Shown here piece after piece: positions 24,696 through 55,300 of a stretch of 64,000 bases of DNA. Each line of letters begins with the position of its first letter. Within the stretch, counting starts at the first letter, position 1. The position numbers were made by a program, and so were the translations under genes. Source of the DNA: Octopus vulgaris (Eukaryota). The notes under the pieces are model-generated. The model ran no database searches, had not been told where the DNA came from, and saw only the letters and a list, made by a program, of their open reading frames with translations. The DNA is taken from assembly GCA_951406725.2 (NCBI GenBank), contig OX597824.1, positions 90,210,001 to 90,274,000 of the forward strand, given 5' to 3'.

Positions 24696-25460
24696 GTTGA
24701 TTAAGGGAAAATTGTCTATTTGATTTTTCTGATGATCTTGTCCCAAGCAAGGCAAGAGGTCACCGTAGCATAAAGAGCTTCCCTGAAATAAAAGAAGGGT
24801 TCATACAAATTCCAAAGACGTCGGTTGGCAGAAAGCTTACAAGAGTGAACATCATAGACAAGAGAAAAGCAAGACAATTGAAACTATTTCTAGAGATTTG
24901 GTCAGTTTTTATGTTTTGAGTTCAGACTCTGATGAGGTCAGCTTTGCCTTTCACCCTTTTGAGGTCGATAAAATAAGTACCAGTTGCGTACTTGGGTCAA
25001 TTTAAGTGACTTACCGCCTTCACCGAAATTACTAGCCTCATGCCCAAATGCATATTTTATTGATGAAAAAACCTAATAAACGAATCATACATATTCTCTC
25101 TCTCTCTTTCTCTCTCTCTGTCTCTCTCTCTGTCTTTCTCTCTCCCTCTCTCTCTCTCGCTCTCTCTCTCTCCCTTGAGTGCATCAAATCAATTTTTTTC
25201 ATGCATGTGAAATATTTTTATGTTTGCAATATATATCCATCATAATGTGTATTTGATAAATATATTATGTATGTATGTATGTATGTATGTATGTATGTAT
25301 GTATGTGTGTGTGTATGTATGTATGTATGTATGTACGTGTGTATGTATGTATGTATGTATGTATGTATGTATGTACGTGTGTGTATGTATGTATATATGT
25401 GTGTGTATGTATGTATGTATGAATGTATGTATGTATGTAAAGAATGTATCTGTCGGGTAT

Positions 25461-25490
25461 AACTAATTCCTGTTTACTTCTCTTTCACAG
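25461..25490 (+). promoter_or_regulatory. Splice acceptor of a 5'-UTR intron upstream of the ASL-like ORF
   Basis: Branch-like ctaat, polypyrimidine tract ttcctgtttacttctcttt, cacag|G. Confidence 0.6.
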
Positions 25491-25700
25491 GTTGCCTGAC
25501 CAACTGGAAGAAATTTGGCCGTCTTCATCCTGTTATTGTAATAGTTCCATTTATTCCATTTTGTTTTATTTTTCCCATTTTATATTGTTTTTTTAATGAC
25601 CATTGTTCTGTCTTCCAACTCATCGTCTTGGAAACGAGCCATCACATCTCACTGATCTCCCTCCGTATTGCGCTCTTTGATCAATTCTACAAAACCCATC

Positions 25701-27350
25701 ATGCAGAGCCTTTACCGTTCTTTCATGAAATCATTCATCATGATCATCTTCACGGTGACCCTACTGCTGTTGATATTCGTTCTGGGTCCAATGAGTGCTT
25801 TCTACAGCAAGACAAGAGTGTCAACGCAGACGACTCCCACCAAGAAGACCTCAAAATCAAATCTCACCAACGGCACCCGTTTTAGACATAATTTCACCAA
25901 AAGCTTCCACGAAATATTGCATTTGACTCTAAAAGATGCCATCACTCAACCGTCAGTGGTAAACAGTTCCAAGTCCCACGGAACGTATCTCGTAACTTCT
26001 CCAAAAGACAATCTACAGAACTATGGCATTGCTCAAACTGTTGATTACAATCTCTTCAAAGAGGACATCGAATGCAGTAAGGCCTATGCCAAAAGCCTGA
26101 CAAGGGTCGGCCTCCTCACAAGAAAAGAGTGTCATAACATTTTGGATGGTCTTGAAATGATTGGAATGGAGTGGGAAAATGGGACGTTTGACTTGAAGCC
26201 GGACGATAAAGATGTCCATGCTGCTAATGAACGGCGCCTGGCAGAGTTGATTGGTTCAGCGGCAAATAAGTTAAATGCTGGCTGGGATCGCAATGACCAG
26301 TTAGCGACAAGTCTTCGACTGTGGCAGAAAAATGCCATCAGCGTTCATAAGAGTGATCTGATTGAGCTTTTGGGTGTGATCACTGAACGCGCAGAGAAGG
26401 AGCTTGGTGTTCTTATGGCTGGCTACACCGTGATGCAGCAAGCGCGACCAATCAGATGGAGTCACTGGCTGCTTAGCTTCGGTTGGAAAATCAAAAGAGA
26501 TATTGAAAGACTTATGGATCTACTTTCACGAGTTGACTTGCTGCCACTTGGAAGCGGGGCACTAGCAGGAAACCCTTTCGGGGTTGACCGAATGTTTTTG
26601 GCCAAAGAGCTCGGGTTTGCTGACATCATAGAAAACAGCATCGACGCTGTCAACGACCAAGACATCATCTTTGAATATGTTGCCTGGGCGTCAATCATGG
26701 CAGCTCACTTCCACAATTTGGCTAATGACCTTATTTTATACAGTACAAAAGATTTCGGGTTTGTTGAACTTTCCCATCCACTACACAATGTTCAAAATAA
26801 CGCCAGTAGCTTTTCGAACGAGAATGCTCGCAGCTTGGAAGAAATCCGTGGTAAAACCAATCACATCTTTGGTGAATACACCGACATGTTGAGTGTCTTG
26901 AAGGAATTCTCAAACCTACACAACAATGATTTCTTATCAAATGCCAAAGGAATGTTTGATATTTACAAGACAATTGTGAACGCTTTACCAATAACCAGAG
27001 CGATCCTCTCTTCTTTGAAAATAAACCCAGACAAAATGGAAGCTTCCCTAAGTGAAGATATGTTATTGCCAGACTTGGAATATTACATGGTACGAAAGGG
27101 CCTACCTGCTGACAAGGCGCACAGCCTGGTTGGAATGTGTGTCAGATTGTCACAGAAAAAGGGGGTCACGTTTTCGAAACTCTCTTTGGCTGAGCTTAGA
27201 TCTGTTAGTCCTGTTTTTGACCTCGATGTAAAATCTGTATGGAATTATAACAACAGCGTAGAGCAATACACACTTCCGGGAGGGACAAGTCACGCTAGTG
27301 TACAGCTTCAAATAGATCAGTTGAAGAAATGGATGTCGTTCCAAAGATAA
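25701..27350 (+). CDS. Argininosuccinate lyase-like protein (fumarase/ASL superfamily), single coding exon, N-terminal signal/anchor, probably catalytically inactive
   Basis: 549-aa ORF from ATG 25701 (catcATG); animal-ASL motifs DVHAANERRL, RNDQ, PIRWSHWLLS, LPLGSGALAGNPFGVDR, LYSTKDFGFVELS, YYMVRKG, SVEQY..GGT. Confidence 0.9.
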   Translation: MQSLYRSFMKSFIMIIFTVTLLLLIFVLGPMSAFYSKTRVSTQTTPTKKTSKSNLTNGTRFRHNFTKSFHEILHLTLKDAITQPSVVNSSKSHGTYLVTSPKDNLQNYGIAQTVDYNLFKEDIECSKAYAKSLTRVGLLTRKECHNILDGLEMIGMEWENGTFDLKPDDKDVHAANERRLAELIGSAANKLNAGWDRNDQLATSLRLWQKNAISVHKSDLIELLGVITERAEKELGVLMAGYTVMQQARPIRWSHWLLSFGWKIKRDIERLMDLLSRVDLLPLGSGALAGNPFGVDRMFLAKELGFADIIENSIDAVNDQDIIFEYVAWASIMAAHFHNLANDLILYSTKDFGFVELSHPLHNVQNNASSFSNENARSLEEIRGKTNHIFGEYTDMLSVLKEFSNLHNNDFLSNAKGMFDIYKTIVNALPITRAILSSLKINPDKMEASLSEDMLLPDLEYYMVRKGLPADKAHSLVGMCVRLSQKKGVTFSKLSLAELRSVSPVFDLDVKSVWNYNNSVEQYTLPGGTSHASVQLQIDQLKKWMSFQR

Positions 27351-27526
27351 TCAATCTGCAGATCAATAGCCAATCATTGGAATGCTCACACCTACCAACA
27401 CCTTTCACCGTTTGTTAGAAAAAACTTTGGACTTTATAAGAATCTCTGACAAATTAATTTATTTATTTATTGTGTTCACTTGTTATAGACTGGGTTTTCT
27501 TGTTCGTGTTTTTTGGAGAATAACTT

Positions 27527-31053: not shown

Positions 31054-32039
31054 ACATAATGCTAAATGGTTACACAACTGAGACAGATAATCTTGCTTCA
31101 ACACAATTCTTTGTGAAATTCAACAACCTGGACCATTGTTTTTTTATTAATTTGGATTTATCTAGTTTTTATATCCTTCAAATTATCAGCTTTTGTTTTT
31201 ACCTTGTCAAGAGGTGAATAATTCACTAAGCATTGCTCCCTGAATCTGCAAAACCAACAAAACCTCTCTACCCCTGTACAAAGGCAGCAGACAACTTAGG
31301 AGAGGTTTCCTTGTGTTGCTAAGAATCTGCCTTGTAAAAAGGGCCGGAAATTCACATTGTCTTCCTAATTTTTGTTGCTGCTTCAAAGCATTATCCACTT
31401 TCGTGTCACCCTTCAGAAAACCATGAATGTTACAGCTTCTTGTTTCTGCTCTTTTCAAAGAATCTCTTTCACCTTTCCTGACTTTGTATTCTTGGCTGTT
31501 GAAAAAAATGCCTGATTGATTGTGTCTTGTTATTTTTGTCCCCTCTTGCAAAAACTTTTGACCGTTTGAGCCAACAAAGACATCAGAGCTATGAGAAATA
31601 TTCCAAATGTTCCTCAAAATCACACCGTACCATCTTAAAAAAATGTTATGTCGCACGTTCGGATGACCTCTACTCGATTCTACTCTGACTGCTACTCTTC
31701 TAGTCTACTACCCTCTTGACTGAGGTCGAGAATGACCGCAGTACACCATTTTTAACAGCTGAAATCCAGGTAGATATTGGACTATTACAAATGACCACTG
31801 AGGTCAAGAATGCTGCCAGTAACTACTGACAATGTGATAATAGAAGGTACCAGTTTAATACTGAAAACAGCCGAGACAGAGACGAAGATGTAAGTCTACC
31901 ACTGATAACAGCTGATGGGACGGAGTATGTCACTGTTGGCTACTTTCTTTTGACACAGTACTTGTTTAGTATTACTAACAGCCGATACAGATAGGAATAC
32001 TAATTTGCTGCTGCTAGAAGTCAAGACAGAGAGAGAGAG

Positions 32040-32935
32040 ATGCTAGATTGCTGCTGTTAACAGCCGAGTCAAGAAGAGAAAGACATTGGTCTGTTGTTGC
32101 TAATAGCTGACACAGAGAGGGACTCCAGGTTGCTGTTGCTAACAGCTGACACAGAGAGGGACTCCAGATTGCTGTTGCTAACAGCCGAGTCAAGAAGAGA
32201 AAGACATTAGTTTGTTGTTGCTAATAGCCGACCCAGAGAGGGACTCCAGATTGCTGTTGCTAACAGCTGACACAGAGAGGGACTCCAGATTGCTGTTTCT
32301 AACAGCCGACACAGAGAGGGACTCCAGATTGCTGTTTCTAACAGCCGACACAGAGAGAGACTCCAGATTGCTGTTGCTAACAGCCGACACAGAGAGGGAC
32401 TCCAGATTGCAGTTGCTAACAGCTGACACAGAGAGGGACTCCAGATTGCAGTTGCTAACAGCCGACACAGAGAGGGACTCCAGATTGCAGTTGCTAACAG
32501 CCGACACAGAGAGGGACTCCAGATTGCTGTTTCTAACAGCCGACACAGTGAGGGACTCCAGATTGCTGTTGCTAACAGCCGACACAGAGAGGGACTCCAG
32601 ATTGCTGTTGCTAACAGCCAACACAGAGAGGGACTCCAGATTGCTGTTGCTAACAGCCGACACAGAGAGGGACTCCAGATTGCTGTTTCTAACAGCCGAC
32701 ACAGAGAGGGACTCCAGATTGCTGTTGCTGACAGCCGACCCAGAGAGGGACTCCAGATTGTTGTTGCTAACAGTCAACCCAGAGAGGAACTCCAGATTGC
32801 TGTTGCTGACAGCCGACACAGAGAGGGACTCCAGATTGCTGTTGCTAACAGCCGACACAGAGAGGGACTCCAGATTGCTGTTGCTAACAGCCGACACAGA
32901 GAGGGACTCCAGATTGCTGTTGCTAACAGCCGATG
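32040..32935. repeat. 39-bp minisatellite (~20 copies) with degenerate flanking units
   Basis: Unit gactccagattgctgttgctaacagccgacacagagagg. Confidence 0.95.
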
Positions 32936-39656: not shown

Positions 39657-39920
39657 TATGGCTGCCCCCTCGTTATCGAGTATGGCCATTGCACGAAGCT
39701 TAACTGTTACTGGTGCTGTGATTGAACGTGACTTTTTAGCCCAGCTAAAGATCTACAATGTCCTGTACACAATTGGCAACTAAAACCTTTACTGGTAATA
39801 GCCTGCTGTAGTTGTAACTGGGCTTCATGTACCTTTGCATGTCGTTTAAGTCCTTCTGCCGAATTACACTCTCTTCCACATGCCCCACAGATATGATTAG
39901 TATGGTGTGTTACACCACCA
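39657..39920 (-). mobile_element. 5'-truncated RTE-type LINE 3' end encoding two C2H2-like fingers
   Basis: CGACGRECNSAEGLKRHAKVH and CQLCTGHCRSLAGLKSHVQSQH followed by stop and short tail; flanked on both sides by (CATA)n. Confidence 0.6.
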
Positions 39921-40706
39921 TACATACATACATACACTAGGGACCCATGAAAATTCCATGTTTTATAATTCTATTTTATTTACATTTGTATACATACATT
40001 TAAATATCTTCATAACATTGCTTATTTATGTTAAAGACTTTTTATGATAATCAGCTTGTGGACAGCTCTGTTAAAAGAATTATTAAACCTAAACCCTTCG
40101 TTTTATATTCTTCTCTCTTTGGCAGTTGCCAGCTCCCACGATCTCTACTGACGATCGCTACGTCTTCTCCCCTCCCTCGCTGGCTTACTGTCTTCAATGA
40201 GAACAAATAAGATCAAGACGAGGTTATTTCCCTTTGAAAGAGTAACACTCAAATGCACGTTTGTACAAGTAAAAAAGAAAATATCACAGATAATGCAGTT
40301 CTAGTTACTACGAAGAAGACAGGAGTGTCACGGTTGGAACAAACACAAGAATAGTACTGAGGTGTGGCTAAAAAACAAGAAAGCTTGTACACCAACAGTT
40401 CCCAATATGAGGATGCCTGCATCCCCTTTACACACGAGCTGGCATTTTCTGGGATGCAACAAATATACTTTATTACAATCAGTTTTTAGAATAAAATTGC
40501 TCCCATATTTGATGGCATTTAAGATGCACTCTTCTTCTTTCCCATGGAAATGTCTCAAAATAAAAATAAAAAATCATTCATTGGTCTCAAAATATTGTTT
40601 ACTTTTATACACTAAAAACTGTTTTCCCTGAATATGTGCTGCTGAAATGGGAGTGTACCTAATAACCCCATGTGTCTTTTATGCTGCCAAATATGGTAAC
40701 TAACTA

Positions 40707-52399: not shown

Positions 52400-55300
52400 C
52401 ACCCTGGTCTTTTGTCATCTTGTCTGAAAGGTTTTAGTATCCTGAGGTTGTCCTTCAGTACTTTGTCCCATGTCTTCCTGGGTCTCCCCTATTTTGAGAG
52501 ATCAGCACATCATTATGGAGCTGTCAGCATCCCTCCACATCACATGACCAAACCAGTGCAGTCTTCTCTCTTGCACACTGCATCTAATTCCTCTGATGCC
52601 TCACTTCTCACTCAAACATGTACCCTTACATTATTGCATTCGATGGAACATACTAGCCTCATTCCTCTCTAATCTTTGCACATCATCTGCGTTCATGGCC
52701 CATGTCTCACTACCATGTAGCATTGCTGTTAATATACCATGCATCATTTAATGTCCAGTCTGAGAGTGTAGTGGGTGCCTTTTATCTGTCATCAGCACCG
52801 GTGCTTTTACGAGTCACTGGCAACAACTACAATTTCACTTGGTTTGACGAGTCTTCCCAAGCGCCGCAAATTGCCAAAGTTCATGGTCACTTGCCATTCC
52901 CGCCGTGAGACCTGACATTCAAAGATCATGTTTCGTCACCTCATCTCATGTCTTCCTGGGTCTACCGCTACCCCAGTTTCCCTCCACAGAAATTGGCTCT
53001 TTGTTACACAGCTGTCCTCGTCCATACACATCGCATAACCATACCGGTGCATTCGTCTCTCTTGCACACCACATCTTCTGCCTCTTATGCCCAAAATTTT
53101 CTCTCAAGACACACTCTGTCTTACATGCACACTGACATTGCACATCCAGTGGAGTATACTGTATTTTTTTCTGTCAAGCCATCACATGACCTCTGCAGTC
53201 ACAGCTCATGTTTCACTGCCATGTAGCATGGTTGTTTGCACACAGGCATCATACAATCTGCCTTTCACTCTGAGGGAGAGATCCTATTTGTTGTCATCAA
53301 AGATAGGAGCTCTCTCAACTTTGCTCAGCCTATTCTAGCAGCTATGCTCTCAGAGCATTCATCTCCACTGCTGAATTGGTCACCTGGGTAACGAATGCTA
53401 TCAACTACTTCTAGGTATTGCCTTGGCATTTGATGGAGTCTGTTTTCTGTATATTTCTAGTGTTTATTGTACCTATGCATCTGCCACACACAAAGACTAT
53501 TTTCCCTGTTAACCTTCTTTTGATATTACTGCACATCTTATGTATCCATAGCTTCCACCAGGTACACCTTATGGGGTCTCTACCTACACTTTTTCTATAT
53601 GTCAAGCAGGGCCATCTACCCTGAAGGGATTTGTGATTTGACTGCTTTCCTACTAAGACTTTGGTTTTTGCTAAATTAACTCTAAGGCCTTTTGATTCTA
53701 GACTTTGCTTCCACTCCTGAAATTTTTGTCTCCAGTTCTGGTAGCGATTCATCATAAAGGAGCTCCCAGGGGCAGCCCAACTTAAAATTCCTCTGTTATT
53801 GCCTGAAGGACTATGATGCACAAAAGGGGGTTAAGGACTGGCCCTTGATGAACTGAATTCATTACTATTCTTGTTGCCAACCCTTACCTTATGAACAGCA
53901 TCCCTGTACATGGCTTGTACACCTCTCACCAGCCACTCTTCTATCCCTATTTCCATAGTGACCTCCAGATAAGGGAGCAGGTGACTCTATCGAAGGCTTT
54001 CTCTGTGTCAACAAAAGCCAAGTACAGGGGTTTATTTTTGGCTATGTATTTCACCTGCAGCTGCCTTACCAGAAATATAGCATCAGTGATGCCTCTCCCT
54101 GGCACAAAACTAAACTGCATTTCATCTAGACTAACTCCCTCCCTAATTAGTTGGGCTATGACCCTCTCCTTAACTTTCATCACCTGATCCAACAATTTGA
54201 TACCTCTGTAATTATTTCTATCTAACTTTGTAGCAGTTGACTATGGTACAATTACACAAGTCATTGGGCATGACTCCTTTGTGTACAATCTGATTAACTA
54301 TACAGGTGACTATACCATAACCCATTCTGCCATTTTCAGCATATCAGTGGTTATTCTTGGTGGGCCGGGGGCTTTCTCCATCTTCATATCCTTCATGGCT
54401 TTGTCTACCTCACGACTGTCTATTCGGATTGCTGGTCTTTCTCTTGGATCCACTTTAGGCAGGCTCTCCTTCTGCCCTGAGTTCTCTACATTTAGCAGCC
54501 TTTTGTAGTGGCACTTGCAAGACTCTTTCTTTGCAGAGTCACCAACTGCAAGTGCACCATCATCCATGCGAATGCATTTCTCTCCAACATCACAATTTTC
54601 CCTGGCACATCATCATCATCATCATTTAACGTCCGCTTTCCATGCTAGCATGGGTTGGACGGTTCAACTGGGGTCCGGGAAGCCAGAAGGCTGCATCAGG
54701 CCCAGTCTGATCTGGCAGTGTTTCTACAGCTGGATGCCCTTCCTAACGCCAACCACTCCGTGAGTGTAGTGGGTGCTTTTTACGTGCCAGACGGGGCTGG
54801 CAGACGGCCACGATCGGATGGTGCTTTTTACGTGCCACCGGCACGGGGACCATACAAAGCTGGCAACGGCCACGGTCGGATGGTGCTTTTTACATGCCAC
54901 TGGCACGCAGGCCAGTCAGGCGGCGCTGGCTACGGCCACGTTTGGATGGTTCTCTTACGTGCCACCGGCACTGGTATCACAGCTACAAATTCCATTGATG
55001 TTGATAGATTACGATTTTGATTTTGATCTTCACTGTTTTGCAAACCGAAACACTTCAAGCTGCTAGTCCTCACGCTACAGAACATTGGCAAACTTCTTCC
55101 TTTCTGCTTCCCATGTGGCTGAGTATACCTGTTCCTAGCTTCCCTTCTTGCTACTACCACTCTTCCAGTACTGCTTCTTTACTCTAATGGCCTTGTCAAC
55201 TACACTGTTACTGTTCCACCACCATGTCACCCTAGGCCTGGTTGGGACTTTGTACCAGCCTCATATTTGGTTTGTGGTTCTCAGTAAGTTGTCTTGTAGG

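Follow-up and report, generated by a model that had tools for sequence, protein, structure and literature searches.

Coleoid cephalopods appear to possess an argininosuccinate lyase (ASL) of the secretory pathway that has turned pseudoenzyme in octopods, an overall explanation to which we assign a probability of about 70%. The octopod protein is encoded in the window, the whole 64-kb stretch of Octopus vulgaris DNA analysed here. The gene would be an extra, intron-free ASL gene of coleoids, whose product would enter the endoplasmic reticulum co-translationally through an N-terminal hydrophobic segment, with the N-terminus in the cytosol and the ASL domain in the lumen. Carried on a stalk, an N-glycosylated ASL-type oligomer would be displayed at the cell surface or within the secretory pathway. 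The ancestral form, resembling the protein of a group that we call cuttlefish-type, would be a lumenal or extracellular C-N lyase, most simply one that cleaves argininosuccinate into arginine and fumarate. On the octopod stem the pocket would have been rebuilt, catalysis lost and the new sequence frozen by selection. This combination of lost catalysis and frozen sequence suggests that the octopod protein has a non-catalytic function, most likely that of an ectodomain which binds a ligand or a partner.

Gene and transcript structure
The octopod protein (P0001, 549 aa) is encoded by a single coding exon (Table 1). Its start codon has an A at position -3, and no earlier in-frame ATG follows the in-frame stop at 25653-25655. 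Two of the four sequencing runs compared with positions 25445-27520, which are only presumed to be RNA, yielded a contig. These contigs, of runs X2 and X4 from two studies, both depart from the genome at 25489 with an identical loose end, and that of X4 is continuous from 25489 to 27495, stop codon included. As the loose-end sequence has no match anywhere in the 64-kb window, we conclude that a 5'-UTR intron and a distant upstream exon precede the single coding exon. At least half of the gene's words were contained in 20 of 24 sequencing runs, the kinds of which were also guessed. The Octopus gene is spliced and looks expressed. The first-pass annotation had allowed for translation starting downstream of the hydrophobic segment; where this could be tested, the leader was contained in the spliced transcript.

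The X4 contig differs from the window at seven positions, four of them coding; of these four, three are synonymous, and the remaining one falls outside the core of the domain. Three of the seven differences are A-to-G (25667, 26102 and 26450, both coding ones synonymous) and could represent alleles or RNA editing. The short upstream ORF at 25596-25655 could tune translation of the main ORF. A public gene model, P0123, joins the ASL-like ORF to a tandem repeat at 32095-32933, a junction that the unbroken X4 contig does not support and that is probably an error. The repeat itself has a 39-bp unit in 21.4 copies with 92% matches, and long open frames on both strands.

Table 1. Positions of the gene and protein features in the window.
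Feature	Positions	Strand	Remarks
5'-UTR intron, 3' end	25463..25490	+	CTAAT resembling a branch point, then pyrimidine tract and AG acceptor (25489-25490)
Upstream ORF, 19 codons	25596..25655	+	Weak start context; same frame and exon as main ORF; stop 45 nt 5' of main ATG
Coding exon, ASL-fold protein P0001	25701..27350	+	Pfam/NCBIfam matches; X4 contig unbroken
Basic N-region, residues 1-11	25701..25733	+	R6, K10, zero acidic residues
Hydrophobic core (12-28) and GPMSA motif (29-33)	25734..25799	+	Signal anchor or long signal peptide
S/T/K-rich stalk, residues 34-91	25800..25973	+	pLDDT < 50; sequons N54, N57, N64, N88
Eroded ASL N-terminal arm	25974..26033	+	G109 substitutes Asn of canonical N27-x-S29 sequon
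ASL-fold domain, Lyase_1 and ASL_C2	26028..27347	+	Pfam; sequons N160, N367, N517
V244 in place of catalytic His162	26430..26432	+	His in 81/81 canonical and in cuttlefish-type rows
Replaced SS-loop	26772..26825	+	GSSxxPxKxN gone; sequon N367 inside; pLDDT < 50 at 360-371
3' UTR, beginning	27351..27495	+	Spanned by X4 contig; 27495 is the contig limit

Leader and stalk
The first-pass annotation had described a basic N-region with R6 and K10, a hydrophobic stretch of 17 residues and a Ser/Thr/Lys-rich linker with four sequons, followed by three sequons in the domain. The translation bears this out: both basic residues are present, the hydrophobic stretch (25734-25784) reads FIMIIFTVTLLLLIFVL, the stalk is rich in S, T and K, and all seven sequons are in place (N54 NLT, N57 NGT, N64 NFT, N88 NSS, N160 NGT, N367 NAS and N517 NNS). 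The novel N-terminal part is real, but its claimed length of about 100 residues shrinks to about 90, since residues 92-111 correspond in the alignment to ASL's own N-terminal WGGRF arm, which is eroded in octopods.

The best 19-residue Kyte-Doolittle mean of P0001 is 2.79, at residue 11, and beyond residue 60 it does not exceed 1.09, which leaves one N-terminal hydrophobic segment and none later. Among 117 other ASL hits the maximum was 2.03 anywhere in the protein, and none (0/117) exceeded 1.3 within the first 80 residues. The AlphaFold2 model predicts residues 2-28 to be helical and the stalk to be disordered. The four stalk sequons are more than expected from composition-preserving shuffles (p = 0.0098); the 117 other hits carry 1.83 ± 0.94 sequons each, with a maximum of 6.

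Distribution and conservation of the leader
The region search found the leader in only three of 84 candidate clusters, namely Octopus (five members), Argonauta (one) and cuttlefish-type (eight), and it is absent from all 117 other ASL hits. 'Cuttlefish-type' is our label for the eight-member cluster, whose one named member is from Sepia pharaonis. Seven of the eight members include the leader. In the annotation of the named S. pharaonis record (P0125), translation begins at a Met further downstream, so that the leader is left off; member P0130 lacks this Met. No donor protein for the leader was found by the region search or by a HMMER scan of the full library, in which the only strong match of residues 1-120 was to the Octopus protein from which they came; two further matches were weak and repeat-like. 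Residues 1-115 had no match in the Atlas, where the cuttlefish-type protein retrieved generic ASL clusters only.

The extension is conserved, against the initial concern that it might be missing from related species: residues 1-33 are identical to Argonauta (33/33) and nearly so to the cuttlefish-type cluster (26/33). Between Octopus and cuttlefish-type proteins, 14/73 residues are identical in positions 34-109 and 250/433 in the domain. The suggested search for further membrane-anchored ASL paralogues or a tandem family turned up the leader-bearing ASLs of these three clusters but no tandem copy: none of the 147 longest other non-repetitive ORFs of the 64-kb window (272 passed the filter) encodes a second ASL. 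Octopus and Argonauta also encode a separate, ordinary, leaderless cytosolic ASL (XP_014778296.1 in Octopus).

Named Octopus homologues of the window protein are 98-100% identical to it, and the domain is identical to that of O. bimaculoides at 439 of 440 positions. Between Octopus and Argonauta, domain identity is 409/440 for the leader-bearing copy and 383/432 for the cytosolic enzyme. The octopod copy thus appears as conserved as a working enzyme, with no sign of decay. A decaying retrocopy or an annotation artefact with a fortuitous leader might be suspected from the intron-free coding region, the very long octopod branch and the public model P0123, in which the ORF is joined to the downstream repeat. 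We regard this as barely credible, as the frame is open in all members of the leader-bearing family, the domain is conserved to the extent given above, the leader is shared with cuttlefish, the contigs are spliced, and the coding differences of the X4 contig are of the mostly synonymous kind described.

Fold and active site
The window protein scores 386.8 bits against TIGR00838 (ArgH), for which the cut-off is 279.5. Its AlphaFold2 model has a mean pLDDT of 80.9, and its top structural matches are delta-crystallins, with a Foldseek TM score of 0.93 (target-normalised) to duck delta2-crystallin 1hy1_B. According to the model, the three-domain helical lyase fold is retained.

The active site was compared across 90 aligned rows, numbered after duck delta2: 9 with the leader and 81 canonical ones hand-picked from the ASL hits. 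The 175 near-invariant columns, each at least 95% conserved among the 81 canonical rows, are altered in 9-10 cases in cuttlefish-type rows, in 66 in the window protein and in 68 in Argonauta. Cuttlefish-type rows keep T161, H162, S283, K289, N291, E296 and the remaining pocket, with K325R as the exception. The changes in the window protein and in Argonauta include H162V, the loss of S283, S284, M286 and K289 with their loop, and H110N, R113W, S114D, S29A and R238Q, and further Y323H, K325N, Q328L, D330N and a change of K331, to Ala in the window protein. S29, Y323, Q328 and K331 are residues that we take to have roles in substrate binding by ASL. Conserved region 1 reads HTGRSRNDQ in cuttlefish-type rows and NAGWDRNDQ in the window, and the substrate-binding segment YNKDxQEDK reads YNRDLQEDK and HNNDFLSNAK, respectively. 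The SS-loop, intact in cuttlefish-type rows, is replaced in the window and in Argonauta, where the replacement has another length and sequence than in Octopus and also contains a sequon (NKT373). The NAS sequon had been placed inside the former catalytic loop, and N367 does fall in the replaced segment. Thr161 and Glu296, the partners of the lost histidine, are kept in the window protein as T243 and E380.

The SS-loop is described as essential for catalysis (PMC13411527), its serine and a histidine as base and acid of the superfamily (PMC13411527, PMC2779060), and H162, E296 and K325 as a network (PMC2779060). Judged by these residues, the octopod protein is predicted to be unable to act as an ASL: its catalytic features place it outside the enzyme family, and its predicted fold makes it an ASL homologue. 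The cuttlefish-type form looks active, with an intact active site.

A lumenal octopod enzyme with a new reaction, departing from the Ser/His chemistry of the family, is very improbable. It would account for the pocket residues that the window protein keeps (D33, D89, H91, R115, N116, D117, T161 and E296) and for the new residues W195, D196, V244 and H407 common to Octopus and Argonauta. However, the octopod protein retains neither the general acid nor the general base nor the lysines that bind carboxylates, and the replacement loop, with its sequon, differs between the two genera in length and sequence. A pseudoenzyme that binds a ligand or partner is the reading that we prefer for octopods.

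Membrane topology and glycosylation
The flanking charge difference (C minus N) is -1 in Octopus, a value that alone is weak, -2 in Argonauta and -5 in cuttlefish-type proteins. The sequons at N54 and N64 are present in 4/4 octopod rows and in 4/5 cuttlefish-type rows; the N-terminus of the remaining row is truncated. That both are shared between the groups in a stalk with only 14/55 identical residues is unexpected by chance (p = 0.044, binomial; p = 0.0003, shuffle). The N160 sequon occurs in 9/9 leader-bearing rows compared with 8/81 canonical ones, and N54, N64 and N160 hold their positions while adjacent residues vary. A sequon has also been lost: N27-x-S29, beside the pocket, is found in 79/81 canonical ASLs, and its Asn is replaced by Gly in 9/9 leader-bearing rows, although the cuttlefish-type rows retain S29. 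This loss would be expected of a domain that meets the glycosylation machinery and must keep its pocket clear; as one of the 9-10 of 175 columns altered in cuttlefish-type rows, N27G alone has a chance of about 1 in 20. Octopods gained extra sequons, one of them within the replaced loop in both genera though the loops differ. Sequon number by itself is not discriminating, as the leaderless canonical P0015 cluster carries 4-6 sequons. The pattern indicates that sequons C-terminal of the hydrophobic segment are under selection. The lumenal or extracellular ASL-fold glycoprotein proposed in the first-pass annotation gains support from the gain and loss of sequons and, more tentatively, from the flanking charges, and we consider a lumenal topology of the ASL domain highly probable.

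Argininosuccinate is made in the cytosol, so a lumenal lyase would need a separate substrate supply. In the reverse topology, the ASL domain would be held at the cytosolic side of a membrane by an N-out anchor; the cuttlefish form would regenerate arginine locally and the dead octopod form would scaffold other proteins, nitric oxide synthase being one example. The intact cuttlefish enzyme would then sit where its substrate arises, and the Octopus stalk is indeed basic just past the helix (K37 and R39). A review reports binding of eNOS by both ASL and ASS, and support of NO release even by inactive ASL (PMC3705211). This arrangement is nonetheless improbable in view of the charge difference of -5 in cuttlefish-type proteins, the conserved stalk sequons and the lost N27 sequon, which would be without reason on the cytosolic side, and the sequon gains of octopods, including that in the replaced loop.

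For the lumenal protein that we favour, an uncleaved type II anchor is rather likely, as conservation of this degree is unusual for a discarded signal peptide. Cleavage after Ala33 followed by secretion is a real, if lesser, possibility; the sequence GPMSA-F could be a cleavage site.

Oligomeric state
An AlphaFold tetramer model had been suggested as a check. The four-copy prediction of core residues 196-444 did score well (0.78, with 0.00 for the best control), but this may be a memory of solved ASL tetramers, and since such tetramers have been solved, the score demonstrates likeness and not binding. The mark used was reached by 21/30 solved pairs and 0/23 single chains of microbes, and by 17/29 pairs of eukaryotes; the four-copy runs had at least 78% contact agreement and a pLDDT of at least 72. 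Octopods keep K317 and have lost E329 and the N-terminal arm. As a study of goose delta-crystallin describes the equivalents of E329 and of the arm as stabilising the double dimer (PMC2779060), an octopod tetramer may be weakened.

Evolutionary origin
In a quick tree, eight leader-bearing rows fell on one side of a branch with an SH-aLRT of 96. The path from the window protein to the nearest cuttlefish-type row comprises 3.27 changes per column, mostly on the octopod stem, which appears to have seen a burst of change and then stasis. The comparison supports an order in which relocation came first and catalysis was lost later, in octopods only.

The animals-only tree without octopod rows placed the leader clade as sister to cephalopod cytosolic ASL (85.8/91), and a fast search with bacteria, again leaving octopod rows out, recovered the same grouping (90.4). 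Including Chloroflexota-like bacterial rows shifted the clade to the base in some searches. A fuller search grouped it with Chloroflexota-like ASLs, a position that was tied with its alternative (AU 0.55 vs 0.50), and FastTree with 187 rows placed it basal to the animal rows. With 33 rows, LG+C20 PMSF rejected the bacterial grouping (AU 0.028-0.039), whereas LG+F+G4 did not (0.09); in this test a cephalopod duplicate (0.70/0.40) tied with a sister of all sampled animals (0.33/0.78), the values tracking the guide tree. The trees sampled ASLs without any identified fungal or protist one. Among bacterial ASLs, identity to P0004 was at most 63% in a search that included 301 genomes of one class. 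The stalk bore no significant resemblance to the N-extension of cytosolic cephalopod ASLs of which it might be a remnant (best p = 0.10 among 20 pairs). We prefer a retrocopy of the cephalopod ASL gene as the probable origin, because it does not require any losses and is consistent with the missing introns.

Some bacterial ASLs (P0149, P0088 and P0172, from loci L001, L162 and L163, the named one being from Chloroflexota) share about 60% of their residues with the cuttlefish-type protein, and the Chloroflexota-like group adjoins the animal clade in the trees, nearer than other bacteria. The cephalopod cytosolic ASLs P0013, P0019, P0133 and P0015 have N-terminal extensions with a KRPR motif, which presumably resembles a nuclear localisation signal, and one cytosolic cluster contains long and short forms of 488 and 463 aa.

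Relation to known proteins
ASL and its relatives are known as soluble intracellular tetramers, and we know of no ecto-member of the aspartase/fumarase superfamily. The leader-bearing proteins share fold and domain order with ASL (ArgH; TIGR00838), at an identity of 43-48% for the window protein and about 60% for the cuttlefish-type protein. They differ by the signal or anchor with its stalk, the single coding exon and the conserved sequons, and the octopod copy in addition by the missing catalytic His and SS-loop. Type II ecto- and Golgi enzymes such as glycosyltransferases combine a short basic tail, one hydrophobic segment and an S/T-rich stem with sequons with a C-terminal catalytic fold. 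The layout of the leader-bearing ASLs is the same, on a fold of the aspartase/fumarase superfamily, but the region search, HMMER and the Atlas revealed no sequence link between the leader and type II enzymes.

The delta1-crystallin of birds and reptiles is likewise an ASL duplicate that kept the fold and lost activity (PMC2779060). It is a soluble lens protein more than 90% identical to its active sister, whereas the octopod copy is about 44% identical to cytosolic ASL, bears a leader and would have lost activity after relocation. For a catalysis-independent role of ASL at membranes there is a mammalian precedent in ASL-eNOS (PMC3705211); that ASL is the ordinary, anchorless cytosolic enzyme, and it is relevant to the octopod copy only under the reverse topology.

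The literature searched, which excluded most subscription journals and bioRxiv supplements, contained no description of a leader-bearing cephalopod ASL in its accessible parts. The readable parts of supplements to cephalopod single-cell papers had no match to 'argininosuccinate', and the readable part of a salivary-gland table had cytosolic ASL among the matches listed. An ASL of the secretory pathway that survives today in both an active and a dead form would be new. It would imply either that a substrate resembling argininosuccinate is available in the lumen or outside the cell, or that the fold has been put to a new use, and the cuttlefish (intact) and octopod (dead, frozen) forms would constitute a natural two-step series from relocation to the loss of catalysis. 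Pathway annotations of cephalopods are affected, since public records call these proteins 'ASL' or 'ASL-like' and the leader or the true C-terminus is missing from two of the gene models.

A bolder extension, which we think unlikely, is an extracellular arginine arm of coleoids, in which a secreted or surface ASL frees arginine, for example for intercellular NO signalling. The octopod protein would then be a non-catalytic, receptor- or carrier-like tetramer in whose rebuilt pocket, now free of the lysines that bind carboxylates, a guanidino amine (arginine or agmatine, for example) is bound. This ligand is a weak guess from the kept D33, D89, H91, R115, N116 and D117 and the lost lysines, weak because acidic residues were also lost elsewhere.

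Other features of the window
The window consists of repeat-rich animal DNA. On the minus strand, a short open frame at 39710-39970 has two C2H2 zinc-finger-like motifs (weak Pfam matches) and may be an exon of a gene on that strand, perhaps one that also includes the minus-strand ORF at 31207-31704. A reverse transcriptase fragment of a broken retroelement lies at 53950-54240, also on the minus strand (RVT_1, E = 3.7e-9).
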